Of a stretch of DNA of 38,759 nucleotides, positions 1 through 38,759 are shown in pieces. The position numbers and the translations under genes were made by a program. How positions within the stretch are numbered: the stretch's first letter is position 1; each line of letters begins with the position of its first letter. Location of the stretch: the IMG/VR virus record IMGVR_UViG_2706794681_000009, one strand, 5' to 3'. This DNA comes from a virus (lineage: Duplodnaviria > Heunggongvirae > Uroviricota > Caudoviricetes). The notes below the pieces were generated by a model. It saw only the letters and a program-made list of their open reading frames with translations. It did not search any database and was not told the DNA's origin.

Positions 1-121
1 TCGGTTTACGGGAAACGGTAAACAGGGCGGCGAATGCTCTGCCATCGGACGGCACCGCCGTTGCCGCGAATAGACTCGCCACCCCAAGAAATATTAATGG
101 GGTTCCCTTTGACGGGACGCA
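1..121. repeat. Left inverted repeat of invertible tail-fibre segment; positions 1-13 form the inner half of a gix-like site
   Basis: Reverse complement of 1-121 matches 1199-1319 with a single mismatch; window begins at the centre of the palindrome. Confidence 0.8.
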
Positions 122-362
122 GGACATAAACATCACTTCTGGTATAACACAGCAGGATGCGGATTCCCGATATATCCAGGATATCAGGCTGGGAGCAGAG
201 AACAGGCAGGTAATGTACGGTGGGGCATATTACTCTGCGTACGGTAATGTTATGGCAGGCCTGCAGATTGACAGTAAAGTTGATGCTTCAAACGATTTTA
301 TAGCATTCAGACCCCTGCAAAAATTAGTCGGAGGTACATGGATTACGGTATCTCAGTTATAA
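3..362 (+). CDS. Tail fibre protein, C-terminal variable segment (Sv), 5'-partial
   Basis: Frame open from window start to TAA at 360-362; encodes ANRLATPRNINGVPFDGTQDI crossover-type motif and GGTWITVSQL tip. Confidence 0.7.
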   Translation, partial: GLRETVNRAANALPSDGTAVAANRLATPRNINGVPFDGTQDINITSGITQQDADSRYIQDIRLGAENRQVMYGGAYYSAYGNVMAGLQIDSKVDASNDFIAFRPLQKLVGGTWITVSQL

Positions 363-413
363 ATAGTCAGTAAATAATATATTTTAAAACAGATTTATTT
401 CCAGGAGGATTTT

Positions 414-935
414 ATGGAACTAAAAAATATAACCCGTTATTATCCTGAAAATATGCCATATGGTAATAATGTTCAGTATTTCCAGAGTGAAGATGGTAAG
501 GATTTCTACGAATCCCTGCCATTATTCACCAAAAAATATAAACTTTGCATAACACCTGACAGCGGCGTTATCTGCTCAATATCACAGGACGCCTCGGCGC
601 TGTATCCTGCGGGGTTTTCTGTGGTTGAGGTCGATGAACTCCCTGAAGGCACGGATATTTCAGGAAACTGGAAGTTTGATAATGGCATAATCTCCCGTAT
701 TCCGGTTAACTACGCAAGAAAACTGGAAGCAATGCGCCAGTCATATCTTAATCAGGCATATGAAAAAATTAATGACTGGAGAACGGAGCTACAACTGGGC
801 ACCATCAGCGATGAAGACAGAGCAGCACTTACCCAATGGATGGCATACATCAGTCAGGTGAAGAAAATGGAACTACCCGCCATTAAAACAGAAGCTGAAT
901 TTAACGCCATTAAATGGCCTGAGCAGCCACAGTAA
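414..935 (+). CDS. Tail fibre assembly chaperone (Tfa/U family), 173 aa
   Basis: AGGAGG RBS 6 nt upstream of ATG; size, position directly after fibre tip, C-terminal ...AIKWPEQPQ resembling Tfa C-termini. Confidence 0.75.
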   Translation: MELKNITRYYPENMPYGNNVQYFQSEDGKDFYESLPLFTKKYKLCITPDSGVICSISQDASALYPAGFSVVEVDELPEGTDISGNWKFDNGIISRIPVNYARKLEAMRQSYLNQAYEKINDWRTELQLGTISDEDRAALTQWMAYISQVKKMELPAIKTEAEFNAIKWPEQPQ

Positions 936-939
936 TAAA

Positions 940-957
940 GAAGGCCGGAAGGCCTTC
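940..957. terminator. Bidirectional hairpin (GAAGGCC-GGAA-GGCCTTC) between convergent tfa and Sv-prime
   Basis: Perfect 7-bp stem with 4-nt loop located between two convergent stop codons. Confidence 0.45.
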
Positions 958-966
958 TGAATATCA

Positions 967-1317
967 TTATATACTTGCAGCCGTCACCCATGCTCCATTT
1001 AACAGATACTGCAACGGCCGGTAATACACGCCGCCGACGTTATCTGCCGTATTCTTACCGACATCCTGTACTTTAATTCCGGTAAGAACATTGCCGCCCC
1101 CCAGATTCAGATCCCAGCTTTCCCATGTTCCGGGCATATGTGCGGTCACCGACCCCAGTCTTATGGCGGTTACTGTTCCTGATGAGATAGTGATATCCTG
1201 CGTCCCGTCAAAGGGAACCCCATTAATATTTCTTGGGGTGGCGAGTCTATTCGCGGCAACGGCGGTGCCGTCCGATGGCAGGGCATTCGCCGCCCTGTTT
1301 ACCGTTTCCCGTAAACC
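967..1317 (-). CDS. Alternative tail fibre C-terminal segment (Sv-prime), expressed only after inversion
   Basis: Minus-strand frame continuous from the gix crossover; first ~40 codons identical to Sv (inverted repeat), then diverges, ending NGAWVTAASI. Confidence 0.6.
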   Translation of the reverse strand, partial: GLRETVNRAANALPSDGTAVAANRLATPRNINGVPFDGTQDITISSGTVTAIRLGSVTAHMPGTWESWDLNLGGGNVLTGIKVQDVGKNTADNVGGVYYRPLQYLLNGAWVTAASI

Positions 1318-1319
1318 GA
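1199..1319. repeat. Right inverted repeat of invertible segment
   Basis: Matches reverse complement of 1-121. Confidence 0.8.
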
Positions 1320-1331
1320 GGTTTTCAGGAA
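1306..1331. other. gix-like recombination site (gixR): TTCCCGTAAACCGAGGTTTTCAGGAA
   Basis: Imperfect 26-bp palindrome at the repeat boundary immediately upstream of gin, closely resembling gix/hix crossover sites. Confidence 0.6.
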
Positions 1332-1396
1332 AGCCAGGATTAACTCTGTTTTATTCCTCATGCGACAATTCCGGCTTTTTATAATAAGGAAATCGT

Positions 1397-1969
1397 ATGC
1401 TGATTGGGTATATCAGGGTGTCAACAAATGACCAGAATACGGCGCTACAAAGAAATGCGCTGGAATGTGCAGGATGTGAGCTGTTTTTCGAAGACAGAAT
1501 AAGCGGTAAGACAAGGGAGCGTCCCGGACTTAAACGCGCATTAAAGCGACTCCGGCCAGGGGATACCCTGCTGGTCTGGAAACTGGATCGCCTTGGACGC
1601 AGTATGCAGCACCTTGTCCTTTTAACAGAAGAACTCCGGCAACGCGGCGTTAACTTCCGCAGCATTACGGACAATATTGATACATCCACTCCCATGGGAC
1701 GTTTCTTTTTCCATATAATGGGCGCGCTGGCGGAAATGGAGCGGGAACTCATTATTGAACGTACACGCGCGGGTCTTGCTGCTGCCCGTGCTCAGGGGCG
1801 TCATGGCGGCAGACCTCAGAAACTGACAGAGAAAGAGCGGGAGCAAATCGCCCGTTTGCTGGCTAATGGCGAGTCCCGTAAACAAATCGCACTGATATTT
1901 GATATTGGCCTTTCCACCCTTTATCGTTATTTTCCTGCCTCACCAGCTCCGTCACCAAAAGTACCGTGA
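1397..1969 (+). CDS. gin: Gin DNA invertase (serine recombinase, Hin/Gin/Pin/Cin family), 190 aa
   Basis: MLIGYIRVSTNDQNTALQRNAL... N-terminus with catalytic Ser; near-identity in pattern to Mu Gin; TATAAT and AAGGA upstream. Confidence 0.9.
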   Translation: MLIGYIRVSTNDQNTALQRNALECAGCELFFEDRISGKTRERPGLKRALKRLRPGDTLLVWKLDRLGRSMQHLVLLTEELRQRGVNFRSITDNIDTSTPMGRFFFHIMGALAEMERELIIERTRAGLAAARAQGRHGGRPQKLTEKEREQIARLLANGESRKQIALIFDIGLSTLYRYFPASPAPSPKVP

Positions 1970-2054
1970 CGCTTTTTTGAATTTCCGCAAAACACATATT
2001 TTTCAGCGGTCGCTATTCTGACTCTGTTTAATTCAGAAACAGGCAGAAAAGACG

Positions 2055-4109
2055 ATGTCAGACTCCAAGTGGAAAATGCTCTCCGCCATGCCCGGAGAGT
2101 TTTCAGTCAAGGTTGCCGGTGGCACGGTGGCATTTATTGAAAGCCCTTTCCGCCCTTCGGGTAATAAAGGGGGGATCACCTTCGCAGACTGCGTGATCCG
2201 CTTCAGCACGAAAGAGCCATTATGGGTAATGCCGGTATCCGGTAATCCCAGTGCAGAAATCACCAGTTCAGGCGTGACTGGCATCATTCCAATCACATCT
2301 GACGTGGCCGGAACGCTCACGCCCTCCGACTGGAATGCACCGGATAACGCCGGGCCTTCCGGTAGCACGAATGGCAGCAGTTCAGAGCCGGAATATTACT
2401 TTGTTGTCATTCTCGCGGGTCAGTCAAATGGCATGGCCTACGGCGAGGGGCTGCCGTTACCGGATTCGTTTGACCGCCCGGACCCACGCATTAAGCAACT
2501 GGCACGCCGCAGTACGGTAACGCCCAACGGTACGTCGTGTACATACAACGACATCATTCCGGCAGACCACTGCCTGCATGATGTTCAGGATATGAGCGGG
2601 ATAAACCACCCGAAAGCTGATCTGGCAAAAGGCCAGTACGGGACTGTCGGTCAGGGGTTGCATATTGCCAAAAAACTGCTTCCCTATATCCCACAGAATG
2701 CCGGGATACTTCTGGTGCCCTGTTGTCGTGGCGGGTCAGCATTCACCACTGGAGCCGACGGCTCATTCAGTGAGGCCAGCGGTGCTTCCGCTGATTCTTC
2801 ACGCTGGGGGGCCGGTAAACCTCTGTATCAGGACCTGGTAAGCCGCACCAAAGTCGCGCTGGCGAAAAACCCGAAAAACAAACTTCTGGCTGTGGTCTGG
2901 ATGCAGGGAGAGGCAGACCTTGCCTCAGGAAGCCAGCAGCATAATAGTTTATTCACGGCCATGGTTCAGCAGTTCAGAACTGACCTGGCTCCGCTTGCTG
3001 CGCAGTGCGTGAGTGGAAATGCCACCACGGTGCCGTGGATTTGCGGTGATACCACGTATTACTGGAAAAACGCTGGCACCGATAAATATGAGGCAGTATA
3101 CGGTGGCTACAAAGGCAAGGAAGCACAGAAAATTTTCTTTGTACCGTTCCTGACGGATGAGAATGGACAGAGCACGCCAACGAATGCTCCGGCGGAAGAC
3201 CCGGATATTGTGGCTGTCGGGTATTACGGTGCAGCATCCCGAACCCAGGGCAGTTTTGTTTCGACACAGCGTGACAGCCATTTCAGCTCATGGGCACGCA
3301 GGGGCGTCATTTCAGACCGTCTGGCCTCAGCTATTATGCTCCATGCAGGGCGCACGGCTGAACTGATGCGTGGGCAGACCGTGACACCACCGGATGAGAA
3401 GCCGTCACCTGATACACCATCAAAACCGTCCACGCCACCCGCAGACACCACGACGATGAGTACGCTATTTGCTTACCGGGCATCTGAGTCTGAAGGACGG
3501 TTGACACCACAGGGTTGGGCTGCCGGAGGTGGCAAGGCTCAAATCGTGGATGATGCCGGAGCCAGCGGGGGTAAGGCAATGAAACTGACCAAGGAAACAG
3601 GAAGAGCCCCCTGGTACCTTGAGCATGATGCTGGTAATGGTGCGGACCTGCTGGGTAAAGGTGGTCTTGTCAGTTGTCGTTTTAAACTCGATGGCGCGCT
3701 TACGGCTAATCAGTACGCACTGGCGCTGTACTGGCCGGTTTCTGCCCTGCCGCAAGGGGTTACTCTGGAAGGAAATGCCGGTCATAACCTGCTGGCATCG
3801 TTCTACGTACAGAGCGATGCCACAGACCTTAACGTGATGTATCACAAAGGAAACACGGCGCAGAACACGAAGCTGGGGTCATTCGGCGCATTTAATAACG
3901 AATGGCATACGCTGGGCTTCCGTTTTGCCGGTAACAACAGTATTGAGGTGACGCCGGTCATTGATGGTAAGGACGGGACACCATTCATGCTGTCGCAGTC
4001 TCCGGTCGGCACGTTTACGGCAGACAAGTTGCGCGTGACCGATATCACTAAAAATGCGACTTACCCGGTACTGATTGACAGTATCGTGGTGGAAGTGAAT
4101 AACGCGTAA
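2055..4109 (+). CDS. SASA/SGNH-type carbohydrate O-acetylesterase (NanS-p-like) with Pro-rich linker and C-terminal lectin-like domain, 684 aa
   Basis: Motifs ILAGQSNGMAYGEG and VVWMQGEADLASG; linker PPDEKPSPDTPSKPSTPP; beta-rich C-terminal ~230 aa; no signal peptide. Confidence 0.6.
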   Translation: MSDSKWKMLSAMPGEFSVKVAGGTVAFIESPFRPSGNKGGITFADCVIRFSTKEPLWVMPVSGNPSAEITSSGVTGIIPITSDVAGTLTPSDWNAPDNAGPSGSTNGSSSEPEYYFVVILAGQSNGMAYGEGLPLPDSFDRPDPRIKQLARRSTVTPNGTSCTYNDIIPADHCLHDVQDMSGINHPKADLAKGQYGTVGQGLHIAKKLLPYIPQNAGILLVPCCRGGSAFTTGADGSFSEASGASADSSRWGAGKPLYQDLVSRTKVALAKNPKNKLLAVVWMQGEADLASGSQQHNSLFTAMVQQFRTDLAPLAAQCVSGNATTVPWICGDTTYYWKNAGTDKYEAVYGGYKGKEAQKIFFVPFLTDENGQSTPTNAPAEDPDIVAVGYYGAASRTQGSFVSTQRDSHFSSWARRGVISDRLASAIMLHAGRTAELMRGQTVTPPDEKPSPDTPSKPSTPPADTTTMSTLFAYRASESEGRLTPQGWAAGGGKAQIVDDAGASGGKAMKLTKETGRAPWYLEHDAGNGADLLGKGGLVSCRFKLDGALTANQYALALYWPVSALPQGVTLEGNAGHNLLASFYVQSDATDLNVMYHKGNTAQNTKLGSFGAFNNEWHTLGFRFAGNNSIEVTPVIDGKDGTPFMLSQSPVGTFTADKLRVTDITKNATYPVLIDSIVVEVNNA

Positions 4110-4253
4110 GCAGGATAAAAAAATGCCGCCGGTAAGGGAAAACAAGAAACCGGCGGCAAAAAGATCGTTATATCCAAAGCAAAAAATGCAGTGCACCTTT
4201 TTACCTAACAGATATTACCGGTGTCAACACCATGTCAATAATTGGGAGGGATA

Positions 4254-4436
4254 ATGACATTTTTACAGCTTATTTTATTGTATTTCTGCACGGCAGTATG
4301 TGCGTTATATCTGGTGAGTGGTGGTTATAAGGCCATCAGAAATTATGTTCGCCGCAAAATTGAGGACGCAGCAGCTGAAAAACTCAGTAAAACAGCGCAG
4401 GTAACTCCGCTCCCAAAAGACCCGACCCAGCCCTGA
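4254..4436 (+). CDS. Small predicted membrane protein (~60 aa, one N-terminal TM helix)
   Basis: GGGAGGG RBS 4-10 nt upstream of ATG at 4254; hydrophobic FLQLILLYFCTAVCALYLV segment. Confidence 0.4.
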   Translation: MTFLQLILLYFCTAVCALYLVSGGYKAIRNYVRRKIEDAAAEKLSKTAQVTPLPKDPTQP

Positions 4437-4471
4437 TTGCAGGGCTTTATTCCCGCATAAGGAGGATATAC

Positions 4472-4726
4472 ATGCCAGAAATTAAAGGCACCGTCACTGA
4501 AGACCTGGTAAAACAGGCACTGTATTCCGGTGAAGTAAATAAGTTGCTGAAAGCGCAGGTCCGCAAGGATTTTGAGGCACAAATCGACACTTACGTTGAT
4601 GAAGTGCTGGCAAAACTTATTGGGCCAGCAGTTGCGGCCAGTGATGCTGATAATGAGCCGAAAACCGACGCGCAGCCAGAGCAACCAGACCCGGCTCAGC
4701 CCGGAACTGACAGTACCATGATGTAA
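4472..4726 (+). CDS. Hypothetical protein, 84 aa, acidic Pro-rich tail
   Basis: AAGGAGG RBS 6 nt upstream of ATG. Confidence 0.45.
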   Translation: MPEIKGTVTEDLVKQALYSGEVNKLLKAQVRKDFEAQIDTYVDEVLAKLIGPAVAASDADNEPKTDAQPEQPDPAQPGTDSTMM

Positions 4727-4893
4727 CAATACAAACCGGTGGTGTCCTCTGCCGGTTTGACACTAATGAAAACATCTTTGCCGCTATCCAGCCATATGTA
4801 ATCGCTGGATAGTATTTCGTATTCAGAAATATAGCTGCTTATGGAGCAGTCAATCCTGCTTCCCCATCCGGGCAGGCAAATGAACCGGTATCA

Positions 4894-5187
4894 TTAGTCC
4901 GATTCACGCTTTTGTAGAATCGTTCCCAGAATGCTATACAGCTCATTAGCCTGTTGCTCCATCATTGAGACGGAGGCTATACGGTGCAAAGTGATTTCAG
5001 GAGGTGGCACACCTCCATCTTCTTGCTGTGGAGGAAAAACATAAGATTTAATAAAAAAGTTGAAGCATATGAACTCTCCCGCACTCGAACTGTATTTGCA
5101 GGCATCTGAATAATCGGAAAAATAATCATTATAGATTTCCGCATTTTCAATCATTTTTCGATTTCTCGTCGTTACATGATTGTCCAT
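4894..5187 (-). CDS. Hypothetical protein, 97 aa, AT-rich gene divergent from com-mom
   Basis: AAGAGG RBS upstream; only long ORF in an AT-rich block. Confidence 0.35.
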   Translation of the reverse strand: MDNHVTTRNRKMIENAEIYNDYFSDYSDACKYSSSAGEFICFNFFIKSYVFPPQQEDGGVPPPEITLHRIASVSMMEQQANELYSILGTILQKRESD

Positions 5188-5310
5188 AGCAGCCTCTTAC
5201 GCTGGCAATTAACCAATTGACTTCTATAAATTAGTTGATTTGTTTGCTTTGCGGTATTCAAATGTACAATCATTCAGCACTTATGCGTTACAGCACCGTT
5301 TAAAATTAGT

Positions 5311-5396
5311 GATCAAACTCATAAATTTTCGCTAATGACATTTCGTGTTATTTGTTGTATCAATTAAATAAATCAAATCGATCGTTTTTGTCGATC
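5311..5396 (+). promoter_or_regulatory. mom upstream regulatory region with three GATC (Dam) sites
   Basis: GATC at 5311, 5380 and 5393, the last two within the palindrome AATCGATCG-N-CGATCGATT, just upstream of com. Confidence 0.5.
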
Positions 5397-5443
5397 GATT
5401 GAGTGATAAAGATATCAACAACAAAGCAGGAGGTTATGCGGCC

Positions 5444-5644
5444 ATGTATCGAAACATACGGTGCCGACATTGTAACAAGCTACTGGCACGAGCCAGCTTC
5501 AGTTATCTGGAAGTTAAATGTCCGCGCTGTAAAACCCTCAATCAAATCACATCTCAGAGCGCCACAGAGCACCCCACATACACAAGGAAATCCTGTCGTG
5601 GGGAACAGAAAGCAAGTTACATCCCGTATCATCAGCACGCCTGA
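5444..5644 (+). CDS. com: Com, zinc-finger translational activator of mom, 66 aa
   Basis: CRHCNKLL...CPRCKT zinc-finger pattern as in Mu Com; AGGAGG RBS 9 nt upstream; overlaps start of mom frame. Confidence 0.75.
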
Positions 5645-6335
5645 ACTTATTCACTATAACGACAATATCGTCGGTTATGGCTCCCGTGAGTTACGGGTTG
5701 AGACAATAAGTTGCTGGCTGGCCCGGCTGGTCGTCGTCAATAAACATTACAGCCATCGTTTCGTAAATAATTCCTACCTTCATCTGGGCATATTTTCAGA
5801 ACGGGAGCTGGTTGGCGTAATGCAATGGGGTTATGCCCTTAATCCAAACAATGGTGCACGCGTCGTAACTGGCACGCAGAACCGCGAATATATGGAGCTT
5901 AACCGGTTATGGCTGCATGACTGTATGCCGAGAAACTCCGAATCAAGGGCAATCAGTTACGCGCTCAAACTAATCAGACAACTTTATCCGCAGGTGCAGT
6001 GGGTTCAGTCGTTTGCAGATGAGCGTTGTGGCTGTCTTGGTGTCGTGTACCAGGCAAGCAATTTTGATTATGTAGGCAGTCATGAAACAACATTCTATGA
6101 ACTTGATGGCGAGTGGTATCACGAGATTTGCAAGAATGCAATCAAACGAGGAGGACAGCGAGGTGAACATCTGCGGGCTAATATCGACAGAGCCAGTGTT
6201 CATAAATTCCGTCAGTTTCGTTACATCCGGTTTCTGGACAAGAGAGCCAGAAAACGCCTTAACACAAAGCTATTCAAAGTCCAGCCTTACCCAAAACCAC
6301 AAACAGTTAAAACTGGTTTGAAAGAGAGTGAATGA
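5598..6335 (+). CDS. mom: Mom DNA-modification (anti-restriction) protein; start codon uncertain (GTG at 5598 proposed)
   Basis: Long frame overlapping com 3' end, position at phage right end after com; no ATG in frame near com stop, AAGGA precedes GTG 5598. Confidence 0.55.
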
Positions 6336-6407
6336 ACGCTTAAAAACTCATTCTAAAACTCAAAAGAAAAGCGCCGATTTAGTATCAAATAAGTTGCGTA
6401 TCGGCGT

Positions 6408-6657
6408 NNNNNNNNNNNNNNNNNNNNNNNNNNNNNNNNNNNNNNNNNNNNNNNNNNNNNNNNNNNNNNNNNNNNNNNNNNNNNNNNNNNNNNNNNNNNN
6501 NNNNNNNNNNNNNNNNNNNNNNNNNNNNNNNNNNNNNNNNNNNNNNNNNNNNNNNNNNNNNNNNNNNNNNNNNNNNNNNNNNNNNNNNNNNNNNNNNNNN
6601 NNNNNNNNNNNNNNNNNNNNNNNNNNNNNNNNNNNNNNNNNNNNNNNNNNNNNNNNN
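6408..6657. other. Assembly gap (run of 250 N)
   Basis: Literal N characters. Confidence 1.
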
Positions 6658-21103: not shown

Positions 21104-21224
21104 ATTGCCTCCGCATAAAGGATGAATATAAAATAAACAGGCGGTCAGTGTACGCTTAACTGGTAAAGTCGGTGCCTGCCTCCGGGTGGATCATGTATGC
21201 GGGTTCGACCCCCGCCACTGACCG

Positions 21225-34143: not shown

Positions 34144-34371
34144 TTAGCTGACTTGTTTCGCACCAACAGAACGGCATATTCCGCTGTAAACTTCTGTCGC
34201 ACCTTCGCGATCAAGTCCGGCAGATATCACCATTCGTGTGCGGTCATTAAATTCAAAAAGTAAATCGCCACATTCTTTATTTTCGGCCAGTGAAATCACC
34301 TTCACGTTATCGAAATTAACCAGGTAAAAGCGTCCGTAAATATCAGGAATATTAAATACCGCCATAATCAC
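34144..34371 (-). CDS. Hypothetical early protein, 75 aa
   Basis: ORF directly downstream of B. Confidence 0.35.
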   Translation of the reverse strand: MIMAVFNIPDIYGRFYLVNFDNVKVISLAENKECGDLLFEFNDRTRMVISAGLDREGATEVYSGICRSVGAKQVS

Positions 34372-35309
34372 ACCTGTGAGAGTAATTCAGGGTTGGTATA
34401 AACCTCTTTAAAGGCCGCATTAATATGTTTTTCTGTCAGCGCCGCGCCTTCACCGCTGGCGGTGAGCCACGCCTGGTTAAGCGTATGTGTCAGAACGCGT
34501 AACGCTCCCGGCTTTTCAGCGATAGCCTGCATGACGGCCAGCTCGGCCTCACCACTGATCCCCCACGCCATGGCAATGGCCAGCACATCCGCCTTTTTGG
34601 CCTTGCGAAGTTGTTTTGTACGGGCAAGACGGCTGAACAGGCGCGATAAATCATCAAAGGCGCGGCGTCCACCTTTAAACAATCCGCGCGGGTTACCAAT
34701 AAGCACCATCCCGATCCCCGTGGCGTCCTGAATTGCCCGGAGTTGCTCCAGACCGTCAATACCAAGATGATCCGCCTCATCCACAATCACCAGTCCACGC
34801 GTTCCCATCAGGCGACGGCGGATGGCGCGGGATAATGCCCCTTTGTTCGCGCGGGTGTAATCAATCCCCAGCGCATCGGCCAGCTCCAGCAGACACTCCG
34901 TGACGCTGGAGTGCGCGGGTGACAGGGTGATCATCCAGGTGTTTGGTTGCTCCTGGCAGTAATTACGGGCAGTGGCCGTTTTACCCACACCCGGTACGCC
35001 CACAATAACGTTAATACAGCCCATCAGGCGAACCGCCTGAAACAGTGCGCGCAGCTCCTGGACTGTCTGAGTTTCCACAAACTGCGGCGGTTCCGGCAGT
35101 GCGCTTTGTTTATTCCAGTTCTCATACCAGGAGCGCAGGGAAGCAGCCACAGCAGCGTTATCGCCTTTATATTTTCCCTTACGGAAAGCCGATAATGTGC
35201 CGTCGGAAATTCCCGCCTCTCTGGCGATGGCATACTGCGTCAGTACGCCGCCATCAATAAGTTCATCAATGGTCTTGATTACATCGTTAATATCGGTCAT
35301 ATTATTCAC
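34368..35309 (-). CDS. B: MuB-like AAA+ ATPase, transposition target-DNA activator
   Basis: 313 aa; N-terminal HTH, Walker A GVPGVGKT, Walker B LVIVDEAD. Confidence 0.85.
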   Translation of the reverse strand: MNNMTDINDVIKTIDELIDGGVLTQYAIAREAGISDGTLSAFRKGKYKGDNAAVAASLRSWYENWNKQSALPEPPQFVETQTVQELRALFQAVRLMGCINVIVGVPGVGKTATARNYCQEQPNTWMITLSPAHSSVTECLLELADALGIDYTRANKGALSRAIRRRLMGTRGLVIVDEADHLGIDGLEQLRAIQDATGIGMVLIGNPRGLFKGGRRAFDDLSRLFSRLARTKQLRKAKKADVLAIAMAWGISGEAELAVMQAIAEKPGALRVLTHTLNQAWLTASGEGAALTEKHINAAFKEVYTNPELLSQV

Positions 35310-35382: not shown

Positions 35383-37470
35383 TCAGGCCAGCGGATCACT
35401 TTCTTTTAATTTCGCTTCGAGCAGTTGCAATCCCCGCTGGAAATTACGCTCGTATTCTTCATCAGGTTCATCGTCAGCGACCGGTTGCTGAACGGTCACC
35501 GTATTACCCACAGGGCGGTATATGTTTTCCAGCCAGGGCTCCTGCGGCTTGTGCTCCAGCACGTTGACAACCTCATCCTCGGCATCACGGATTTTTTCCT
35601 CTGCGCGTTTACGCATGCCTTTAAGGCGCTGCTGCTGTTTGTAGTATTCCGCGCTGACAGGGAAGGCTTCGCGTTTATTGCCGTCCCATACCGCCTCGCA
35701 AATCACGCTGCCATCCGGGCGGCGCACGGTAATTCGTTCGGCATCATGAATGTCATAGCTGATAAGTACCTTACGGCCATGCTCGTCACGCAGCTCGGGC
35801 GCGTAGTAAATATTATTCAGCCAGCGTATTTCACAGCGTCTTACAGGGCGCTCCACCATCGGCCGGAACATATCCCGCAGTTCAACATCGGACAGCCATT
35901 CAATTTCCGTGTCCTCTTCCGCCAGGCGTTTTTTTCTGAACTCCGCCGGGCTGTAATGTTTACCGTTCGGCTTCATGGGTAATTCATCGTGCGGCCGGTT
36001 GTTGTACCACTCAACACCGTCACGAATGGCATCAATCAGTTCAGACCAGGACGGTAAATCACGCATCGCTGACTGCTGCCGGGCGTTCAGCCGTTTGCCC
36101 TGTTGCAGGGCACTGAATGCCGAGCGTAAATCGCGGTTGGTTTTACGTAACGTCTCGCGATCTGCTCCTTTCCCGAAATAGGTGCGGTATTTACGGGCTA
36201 TGCGCATCGGTAATGTGCGGTTAAGCCGTTCGATAATGCCCCGTCCCTGCGGATTACCGGCAATCCCTGTCGGGTGATTAATCCCCAGTCGTGGCAGTAT
36301 CCCCACAATCTCCTTATCCAGGACGTCGGCGGTTTCCCCGGAGCCATTATCCGAGTAATACAGAAACGGTTTGCCATGATGGCGAATACCGTGCTGTATG
36401 GCACCGGCTACGGCGAAAACATTTTCAGCCAGGTCAAGGCTCCAGCCCACCACAAAGCGCGTGCCACCGTCGATAACAAAGGTCACTTCCGGTGCGAATG
36501 GCCGCCCGTGAACCGGGTGCGCGCATTTCAGCTTCATGCCGTGACCGTCACCAATCCAGACATAATTCACCGGCATTCTGGACCAGTCGCGGCGCGTGAA
36601 TCCCTCAAGCTGACGGTATTCACTGCCAGTTACCCGGCCTTTTTGTTTCACCACTTCCGGCAGTTTCTTCATTGCGCGGCGAATGGTGTCATAAGAGGGC
36701 ATGATATCGAGCATATAAGGCTCATCAGCGTGCCGGTGCTGCCATTCAGCAACAAAATCCTCGTAAGCCTCGGTCATTGGTCGGCCGTTTGACTGGCGAT
36801 ACTGCGCCAGAAATTCGGGCAGCCAGTTAATATCTTCGGCTTTTATTTCCTGGCGTTTACCCGGTGCCAGTAAAAGCAGGCGTTCAGCGGCGTTCTGTGC
36901 CTTGTTAAAGGCCGCAATCCAGCGTTTCAGCGTGATTTCACTCAACGCGCGGCTGTTTCCCTTTTTGGCGTTCGCCGTCTCAACCATTGCCACAATGCGC
37001 TCGTCCAGTTGTGATCGTGCCAGGCTGTTAACGAGGAACCGGATAGCTTTAGCGCAGCTGAAACCGGGTTGTTGCGTGAATTTCAGCACCTCACTGACGA
37101 TCGCAATGCGTGCGTCTGCCACCTGGCGCTGGTTTTCAGTCAGGGCATTGAGGCGTTCGACCATCAGTTGTGGTGATCCGCGATATGCCTCCACCGCATC
37201 AACCACGGCAGACGAGCGTCTGGCCTTTGTCACCACCGGAGCCGGTGATTCATCGGCTTTTTGCGTCATCAGTTGCAGGGCATAACGTTCGCGTAATGCC
37301 TGCTGTGTCACTTCAGGTAAACAGTCAATGCTGTATTCAAAACCTTTAGCGCCTTTCTTGCGGCGTCTGCTGGTTTCGCTGGTTGCATACTTCCTGATTG
37401 AATAGCGAACGCCTTGCTCCGTTCCCGGCATCCCCGGTAATCCAACCAGTTCTTTAACTGAAGCAAACAT
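35383..37470 (-). CDS. A: MuA-like DDE transposase
   Basis: 695 aa; N-terminal DNA-binding region and central DDE core; position between ner and B. Confidence 0.9.
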   Translation of the reverse strand: MFASVKELVGLPGMPGTEQGVRYSIRKYATSETSRRRKKGAKGFEYSIDCLPEVTQQALRERYALQLMTQKADESPAPVVTKARRSSAVVDAVEAYRGSPQLMVERLNALTENQRQVADARIAIVSEVLKFTQQPGFSCAKAIRFLVNSLARSQLDERIVAMVETANAKKGNSRALSEITLKRWIAAFNKAQNAAERLLLLAPGKRQEIKAEDINWLPEFLAQYRQSNGRPMTEAYEDFVAEWQHRHADEPYMLDIMPSYDTIRRAMKKLPEVVKQKGRVTGSEYRQLEGFTRRDWSRMPVNYVWIGDGHGMKLKCAHPVHGRPFAPEVTFVIDGGTRFVVGWSLDLAENVFAVAGAIQHGIRHHGKPFLYYSDNGSGETADVLDKEIVGILPRLGINHPTGIAGNPQGRGIIERLNRTLPMRIARKYRTYFGKGADRETLRKTNRDLRSAFSALQQGKRLNARQQSAMRDLPSWSELIDAIRDGVEWYNNRPHDELPMKPNGKHYSPAEFRKKRLAEEDTEIEWLSDVELRDMFRPMVERPVRRCEIRWLNNIYYAPELRDEHGRKVLISYDIHDAERITVRRPDGSVICEAVWDGNKREAFPVSAEYYKQQQRLKGMRKRAEEKIRDAEDEVVNVLEHKPQEPWLENIYRPVGNTVTVQQPVADDEPDEEYERNFQRGLQLLEAKLKESDPLA

Positions 37471-37472
37471 AA

Positions 37473-37703
37473 TTACGCGACCTTACGAATGTAGCGGCTG
37501 GGCCAAATCTCCTCGGGCGGCACCCCCAGGCATTCCGCGATAATCCCCTCATACTTGGGAACATGGCGGTATACCGCGTTGTACAGATTGTTCTGACCCA
37601 CGCCAGCTTTACGGGCCAGCGCCCTCATGCTTCCTTCTCTGGCTCTGACTTCCCCCAAAATTCTTTGAGGATGCCAATCAGGCTTAACTTCATTTCTCGC
37701 CAT
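37473..37703 (-). CDS. ner: Ner-like DNA-binding regulator
   Basis: 76 aa; ...EIWPSRY... C-terminus as in Mu Ner; divergent from repressor. Confidence 0.8.
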   Translation of the reverse strand: MARNEVKPDWHPQRILGEVRAREGSMRALARKAGVGQNNLYNAVYRHVPKYEGIIAECLGVPPEEIWPSRYIRKVA

Positions 37704-37888
37704 GATTCATCTATCCTAAAAAGTTACGAAATTTGATAACTAAACTTAGTTATCAAGTTTGATATAAGTATTGATCCACTTCTGCTTCATGTAAAGCAAA
37801 AAAAACATCTTTCTTTTGTCTATTGTGGATCAATGGTTGCTGACAACACTAAAAGTTAATAATTTCAAATTGATAGGAAGAAAAGAAA
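37704..37888. promoter_or_regulatory. Early operator/promoter region between ner and c
   Basis: Perfect palindrome TGATAACTAA-AC-TTAGTTATCA (37734-37755); inverted repeats ATTGATCCAC (37770-37779) and GTGGATCAAT (37825-37834); repeated TTTGATA motifs. Confidence 0.6.
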
Positions 37889-38434
37889 ATGAACAAGCAA
37901 ACAACAACATCTCTTTCTTTTCCTGGTGGTAGAAAAGAAAGCATTGCTGAGCGTCTGAAAAGGCTGATTGGCTCCCGCAGCGTCAGAGCTGCAGCAAGAG
38001 ATTGGGGGCTTTCATTTTCAACACTAAACAATTATCTGTCTCGTGGCACTGAGCCATCCTTAAGTGTCGCCCTTCAGATTGCGTCTATCGAAGGAGTAAG
38101 TGTTGAGTGGCTATGTGGATTCAGTGATGCATCACAAGTGAATCGGTGTGAGATCAAGGAAAATCAAGATGAAAGCAAGAAGATAATTATGACGATTATC
38201 AGCGCACTTGATGAAAAAGACTTAGAGCAGCTATCGAAAAATTTGGTTCTGAATGGAGCCAAGTACTTAGCTCGGTTGTTAGAGCCTGAAAATCAAGATC
38301 TAATCCGCTTAGAAGGAAGGAAAAGAATAGCTGCATTACAGCTTGAAGGTATGTCTGACGAACGCGTCAGAGAGATTTTGGAAGAAACTGAGAGAAGTCG
38401 CAAATCTAACGCGGTAGAACCAAAAGCGGGTTAA
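37889..38434 (+). CDS. c: Repressor c-like lysogeny regulator
   Basis: 181 aa, N-terminal HTH (LSFSTLNNYLSRG...), divergent from ner at phage left end. Confidence 0.6.
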   Translation: MNKQTTTSLSFPGGRKESIAERLKRLIGSRSVRAAARDWGLSFSTLNNYLSRGTEPSLSVALQIASIEGVSVEWLCGFSDASQVNRCEIKENQDESKKIIMTIISALDEKDLEQLSKNLVLNGAKYLARLLEPENQDLIRLEGRKRIAALQLEGMSDERVREILEETERSRKSNAVEPKAG

Positions 38435-38508
38435 TAGCATTAGCCCGCATTTTGCACTATATCGAGTATTTCGCATTGTTTGGAACGCCTTAAAAGACTA
38501 AAACCACA

Positions 38509-38670
38509 GTATCAAATGAGTTGCCGATTTTATAATAAATGACTAATTATTGCACAATCGGTATCAAATAGACCTTATCCGCACATCTAGCCATCACCTG
38601 TTTTATTTCAGTATCTTACAGGTGATTTCACCTCCTTTCACTAAACCCCTTGTCGGTATCAAATGATTCA
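38509..38670. repeat. Phage left-end region with three transposase-binding-like repeats (consensus CATTTGATACCG on minus strand)
   Basis: Copies at 38509-38519, 38561-38570, 38656-38666; terminal TTCA-3' (5'-TGAA on minus strand) at 38670. Confidence 0.5.
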
Positions 38671-38759
38671 CCTGGTTATATGTCGCCAGTCGATACCTTC
38701 CAGCAGCATCGCCAGCTGCGCCTGTGTAAGGAACACTTTGCCATCACGGGCTGACGGCC
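38671..38759 (-). CDS. Flanking host-like ORF fragment, 3' end, apparently interrupted by the phage terminus
   Basis: Minus-strand frame open to window edge (...ARDGKVFLTQAQLAMLLEGIDWRHITR) ending in TGA formed by the phage terminal nucleotides. Confidence 0.3.

Follow-up and report, generated by a model that had tools for sequence, protein, structure and literature searches.

The window (the whole 38,759-nucleotide stretch analyzed here) holds a Mu-like prophage on the minus strand from 6658 to 38680, together with a segment at 1 to 6408 that carries an invertible tail fiber segment, genes for a Gin-like recombinase and a DUF6645 protein, com, mom, and the start of the right end of the phage (Table 1). 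Genes for a DDE transposase and an AAA+ target-delivery protein adjoin the left end. The D, D, and E positions of the transposase can be read by eye in a BLASTP alignment to MuA, and comparison with solved structures matches its N terminus to the enhancer-binding domain of MuA and its core residues 362 to 424 to retroviral integrase. A terminator scan for the repressor gene between 38434 and 38680 found none.

The sequence is made up of two assembly pieces with 249 N between them, each of which stops at the inverted repeats of the invertible segment; position 1 should therefore abut 6658, and the first piece as written is flipped with respect to a linear prophage. Position 6407 aligns to position 40793 of strain 600029 (L001), where the phage ends at 40849. 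The G-like invertible segment (1 to 1335) is bounded by inverted repeats of ~130 to 140 bp (1 to ~145 and 1193 to 1335), lies in the orientation opposite to that in strain 600029, and has the Gin-like serine recombinase gene next to it (1397 to 1969). Between the recombinase gene and com/mom, where Mu has no gene, lies the DUF6645 gene (2055 to 4109; 684 amino acids), which may be cargo. RefSeq annotates a "tRNA-OTHER" in four relatives (L001, L002, L003, L004) at the place equivalent to ~21144 to 21223, and likewise in L013 and L014 at the same gene junction; ARAGORN found no tRNA at ~21144 to 21223 of the window.

Table 1. Features of the prophage ends and adjoining genes in the window, in order of position.
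Feature	Coordinates	Strand	Remarks
mom, last gene before right end	5598..6335	+	Pfam Mom, E 7.8e-78
R3 candidate, innermost right-end site	6380..6391	-	TATTTGATACTA; sole right-end site left in window
Run of N, 249	6409..6657		Hides last 56 bp of right end: R2, R1, terminus ...GCGCTATA
MuB-like AAA+ transposition ATPase	34368..35309	-	Phage-MuB_C + AAA_22; 48% identical to MuB
Transposase A, 695 aa	35383..37470	-	Mu I-alpha-like N-terminal domain, weakly rve-like DDE core, Mu-transpos_C, HTH_Tnp_Mu_1
Ner-like small DNA-binding protein (HTH_35)	37473..37703	-	Domain match
Repressor-position gene, HTH_3/XRE type	37889..38434	+	Transcribed toward left end; not homologous to Mu c
L3 site candidate	38507..38518	-	CATTTGATACTG; core 165-172 bp from terminus
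L2 site candidate	38559..38570	-	TATTTGATACCG; core 113-120 bp from terminus
Perfect 9-bp inverted repeat, 16-nt gap, in L1-L2 spacer	38593..38626		ATCACCTGT/ACAGGTGAT
L1, terminal transposase-binding site candidate	38654..38673	-	AGGTGAATCATTTGATACCG; core TTTGATAC 38656-38663, 18-25 bp from terminus
Left terminus of phage	38674..38680	-	5'-TATAACC; last phage base 38680; 4-bp duplications abut directly
Host-side flank, IS66-family (ISEc8-like) DNA	38681..38759		79 bp, 98.7-100% identical to ISEc8/IS66 elements of Stx phages

The left limit of the element can be read from its relatives. About 125 complete E. coli genomes carry prophages that match the left-end region, with a different gene interrupted in each, and the alignments to these prophages all stop at or just after 38680. 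In a boundary set of 19 copies, consisting of 18 fetched relatives (L001-L005, L007, L012-L014, L017-L025) and the window, all left flanks differ from one another and all elements start with T(A/G)TAACCAGGTGAATCATTTGATAC and share the boundary T(A/G)TAACC. Since these 19 copies at 19 loci are identical in extent up to 38680, the true phage-host junction is 38680/38681, where the window reads ...cggtatcaaatgattcacctggttata/tgtcgccag... (the slash marks the junction). A preliminary description of this DNA had correctly recognized the left end of a Mu-like transposable prophage and placed the junction at 38670, 10 bp too far inward: phage sequence runs to 38680 in every independent copy when the ends of related phages are aligned, as that description had proposed doing, and IS66-family DNA begins at 38681. 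The TG that it took for the element end does exist 4 nt outside the terminal repeat (38670 to 38669, minus strand), but it is internal to a phage whose left end reads 5'-TATAACCAGGTGAATCATTTGATACCG and whose terminus is 5'-TA. To judge from the identity of the flank, the insertion site lies within an IS66-family (ISEc8-like) element, and the multicopy nature of this flank is probably the reason that the assembly stops at the window end.

Among the 19 copies, a 5'-TA left end is found in 11 (the window's lineage and a lineage at 95% identity) and a 5'-TG left end in 8 (the Sp18-like lineage), while the right ends of all complete relatives finish ...GCGCTATA-3'. The termini of the window's lineage are TA at both ends, and those of the Sp18 lineage are TG at the left and TA at the right.

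Host DNA at the insertion sites of complete relatives gives the length of the target-site duplication, for which the preliminary description had expected 5 bp. In all seven complete prophages it is 4 bp (AACA, TACG, GACG, CATG, CATC, TGTG, and TACG), and in none of the seven does the fifth base beside the duplication match on either side. In K-12, the unoccupied ybaE site has the sequence GTTGT-AACA-GCATC, which confirms the 4-bp duplication, and the depositors of GenBank record LC727881 annotated the same 4-bp duplication for an inserted Mu-like phage. The complete copies and the empty K-12 site together rule out a 5-bp duplication; shifted or 6-bp decompositions of the junction, tried by hand, also fail. 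In the window, TGTC at 38681 to 38684 is the expected 4-bp duplication. The 19 left flanks (38681 to 38692 in the window) further show an apparent target preference, in that the duplicated bases favor N-R-Y-N (a purine in 17 of 19 and a pyrimidine in 16 of 19) and a G stands two bases outside the duplication in 15 of 19. No paper on a 4-bp duplication in Mu-like phages turned up in the literature searched here, which mentions only 5 or 6 bp.

These observations bear on whether the locus could be a canonical Mu end, in which the element would stop at the TG at 38670, with its terminal site ~5 bp inside, and would duplicate 5 bp of target. Such an arrangement is suggested by the TG at 38669 to 38670 (minus strand) just outside the terminal repeat and by Mu itself, which starts 5'-TG with L1 ~5 bp inside. 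However, the 10 bases from 38671 to 38680 (TATAACCAGG) are present in all 19 independent insertions, the duplicated host bases adjoin 38680 rather than 38670, and the duplication is uniformly 4 bp, so a canonical Mu end is extremely improbable here. The sequences instead show an element that stops at 38680, has TA termini, and duplicates 4 bp of target.

Inside this boundary lie the three repeats, whose cores read TTTGATAC(C/T)G. On the minus strand, the 12-mer CATTTGATACCG occurs exactly at 38654 to 38665 and with one mismatch each at 38559 to 38570 and 38507 to 38518, and the left-end copies were recovered independently by a repeat search, with spacings of 52 and 95 bp. A fourth, similar copy near mom (6380 to 6391, three mismatches) begins 45 bp past the mom stop codon (6335). 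The repeats noted in the preliminary description are thus real and, as shown below, above chance, although its coordinates were off by 1 to 2 nt; its copy near mom also stands, at 45 bp from the stop codon rather than the 47 bp claimed. The likeness that it drew to Mu L1/L2/L3 holds as well, with a terminal site, a spacer of ~85 bp, and then two closer sites.

The layout of both ends can be read from the complete relatives. Core starts lie at 18 (L1), 113 (L2), and 165 (L3) bp from the left terminus and at 18 (R1), 40 (R2), and 75 (R3) bp from the right terminus, identically in three E. coli lineages; the position of L2, for example, is unchanged in the 95%-identity and Sp18-like lineages. L1 and R1 share one register, with the core at 18 to 25 bp from either terminus, and L3 and R3 have in common a longer repeat form, GCAACTYATTTGATACT. 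Complete relatives have three cores per end, inverted between ends; the window shows three at the left and one at the right. In strain 600029, R2 and R1 lie 35 and 57 bp outward of R3, and the terminus comes after them. Matching repeats are therefore present at the opposite end, the absence of which the preliminary description had named as grounds for abandoning its reading.

Whether the repeats exceed chance depends on the statistic. The 12-mer CATTTGATACCG at three mismatches is without enrichment in the window (37 matches against 34 expected), as would suit chance matches or leftover duplicated sequence without function. A 12-mer at this tolerance is uninformative, and the exact core TTTGATAC was therefore used instead. 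It occurs five times in the window against 0.88 expected (~6-fold), a count reached in 0 of 100 shuffles, and four of the five cores found in this search for further copies, which the preliminary description had suggested, are at phage ends, each oriented alike relative to its own end. Clustering of an enriched 8-mer at both termini, retention of the core where spacers have diverged or been replaced, and retention of the 52-bp L2-L3 spacing even where the motif itself has changed (the L009 lineage, below) all argue against chance or functionless remnants, to which we give almost no credence, and in favor of conserved sites.

By its sequence, the E. coli prophage in the window is of a known kind, the Sp18 type of Mu-like phage. 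The gene order seen here recurs in Sp18 of E. coli O157:H7 Sakai and in related "Mu-like phages" of STEC (e.g., Mu_JNE082796, LC727881), which also have a transposase 93.7% identical, an identical right end, sites at 18/113/165 and 18/40/75 bp, and a 4-bp duplication. Sp18-type Mu-like phages have been described as transposing in STEC (PMC7430833, PMC10132054), and six putative transposase-binding sites were listed for Mu, FluMu, Pnm1, and Sp18 in the KS10 paper (PMC2628397). The Sp18 lineage differs from the window's in its left terminus (5'-TG versus 5'-TA), its left-end DNA (~78% identical), and its immunity region, where the repressor is 42% identical. The difference extends into the transposase: residues 1 to 40 (window 37351 to 37470) are 40% identical to those of the Sp18-like lineage and the rest ~98%. 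The Mu I-alpha-like domain seems to have been exchanged together with the immunity region, as would be expected if this domain reads an operator-linked enhancer.

Likeness to Mu lies in layout more than in sequence. Shared with Mu are three sites per end, a terminal L1 with a long spacer before L2 and L3, a distance of 22 bp between R1 and R2, a gene order of repressor, ner, A, B beside attL, mom beside attR, and a MuB-like partner protein. In contrast, a comparison with the ends of Mu itself shows no relation between the site consensus and that of MuA, whose half-site contains CGAAA; R3, which is inverted in Mu, is a direct copy in the window's phage group; full-length identity of the transposase to MuA is only 23% (E 1e-13); and the element has 5'-TATAACC...GCGCTATA-3' termini and a 4-bp duplication where Mu has TG...CA and 5 bp. 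No similarity was found between the HTH_3-type repressor of the window and Mu c, a repressor that is homologous to the N-terminal domain of the transposase.

Among those compared, the closest characterized transposase is A of the Pseudomonas phage D3112 (30% identity over 624 amino acids), and this homology is full-length and stronger than that to MuA (E 2e-87 versus 1e-13). The D3112 left end, AGGTGACTGTTTTGACAC against AGGTGAATCATTTGATAC in the window, matches L1 at 14 of 18 positions. It reads TGCTGTGGGGAGGTGACTGTTTTGACAC and resembles L1, with the terminal core 3 bp further from a 5'-TG terminus, and is followed by two further inner repeats at ~110 and 145 bp. D3112 differs from the window's phage in host and, by taxonomy (Casadabanvirus), in virion type. 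TA ends have a precedent of another kind: a 2021 paper, which speaks of a 5/6-bp scar, states that TG-CA ends are conserved throughout the Mu- and B3-like phages described to date and treats the TA-TA transposable prophages of Leptospira as unusual (PMC8705779). The Leptospira prophages have TA...TA ends like those of the window's phage, but they make a 6-bp duplication, encode a B3/Tn552-like transposase, and belong to an unrelated host and phage group.

Which protein the repeats serve is best approached through phages in which end sites and genes have been reassorted. Yersinia phage vB_YpM_5 (MT374853) encodes a transposase 82% identical to that of the window, the last ~30 residues of which match the MuA C-terminal tail, in a genome that is otherwise essentially Mu, with B, gp27, and gp28 97 to 99% identical to those of Mu (B 99%, gp27 99%, gp28 98%). 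This phage (L011, 4540 to 8023) is a natural chimera: its repressor and ner genes, the greater part of A, and the end sites on both sides are of the window's type, and B, the late genes, and the L1-L2 spacer are Mu's. The MT374853 record is circular through ~80 bp of DNA between the two ends that is presumably host derived. Three TTTGATAC sites stand at each end of vB_YpM_5, with the right-end spacing of 22/35 bp found here and a Mu-like L1-L2 spacer. Window-type transposase and sites in a Mu backbone imply that the repeats travel with the transposase and not with B or the packaging genes.

A second comparison varies the transposase itself. A scan of genome contigs with the transposase as query yielded only two loci (L009 and L010), which belong to a lineage, from a Shigella/E. 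coli prophage, in which the transposase core is 85 to 98% identical to the window's but residues 1 to 200 only 32 to 68% (74% overall). The region corresponding to these residues binds DNA in MuA. In this lineage (1737 to 1890; 5'-TATGAC terminus, with the boundary set by register only and both loci representing one insertion), the repeat is instead TTCAAGATAA, at 18, 89, and 141 bp, with L1 in an unchanged register and L2 and L3 still 52 bp apart. The repeats can be assigned to the transposase on the strength of the shared terminal register, the module swap in Yersinia, and the different repeat that accompanies a diverged transposase N terminus. Coinheritance of sites with transposase is seen by comparison, the six-site layout is conserved, and the three repeats are, from these sequence comparisons, very probably binding sites for the phage's own DDE transposase (35383 to 37470).

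An alternative hypothesis is that the repeats bind another protein, such as the repressor, Ner, terminase, or a host factor, or are packaging signals. The left-end spacer of Mu carries its pac site and an HU-binding region, and the repeats in the window lie directly downstream of the repressor gene, both of which would fit such a role. However, a pac site confined to the left end would not give inverted repeats in the same register at the right end, and in the Yersinia chimera the repeats go with the transposase while B, the packaging genes, and the spacer stay Mu's. Operators should lie in the interval that separates the repressor gene from ner (37704 to 37888) rather than on the 3' side of the repressor gene; repressor identity is only 42 to 53% among phages that keep the same repeat, and a varying repressor beside a constant repeat that recurs at the far end of the genome argues against them. 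We consider binding by another protein unlikely, and transposase binding remains the preferred reading. The L1-L2 spacer does contain a perfect inverted repeat (38593 to 38626) in a block that is identical in three E. coli lineages and replaced by a Mu-like spacer in the Yersinia chimera, and this may be a candidate packaging (pac) or host-factor site.

Taken together, 38507 to 38680 is in all likelihood the attL of an Sp18-type Mu-like E. coli prophage residing in an IS66-family element, with the TTTGATAC-core repeats as candidate L1-L3 transposase sites, matched at the right end by three inverted copies, R1-R3. If the phage works as Mu does, transposase bound at L1-L3 and R1-R3 would bring the two ends together and leave the terminal 3'-A of each exposed, both ends would then be joined to target DNA 4 bp apart, and the MuB-like ATPase would deliver the target. 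Transposase binding, assembly order, and cleavage chemistry are our inferences, and because TA termini and a 4-bp duplication are unlike the canonical case, the detailed mechanism of Mu cannot be assumed to apply unchanged.

For annotation, the exact prophage boundary is fixed at 38680, with an IS66-family element as the host flank, and a search rule built on TG/CA ends and a 5-bp duplication would misdelimit this common group of E. coli prophages. TA ends with a 4-bp duplication seem underappreciated, though not hidden, given that PMC8705779 treats TA-TA ends as unusual and speaks of 5/6-bp scars; the 4-bp duplication has perhaps already been recognized, as GenBank record LC727881 annotates one, and we are uncertain on this point. 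More tentatively, and with slightly less than an even chance in our estimate, widespread E. coli Mu-like phages may use a D3112-like transposase that joins TA-3' ends with a 4-bp stagger and that also works in a Mu backbone with Mu's B. If true, such phages would offer a natural setting in which to ask what determines stagger length and how far end dinucleotides are tolerated in the D3112-like transposase family, and the TA-ended 4-bp phages together with the natural Mu chimera could serve the study of stagger length and end recognition. Current understanding is not overturned by these findings; TA ends and a 4-bp duplication are a modest twist on otherwise ordinary biology.
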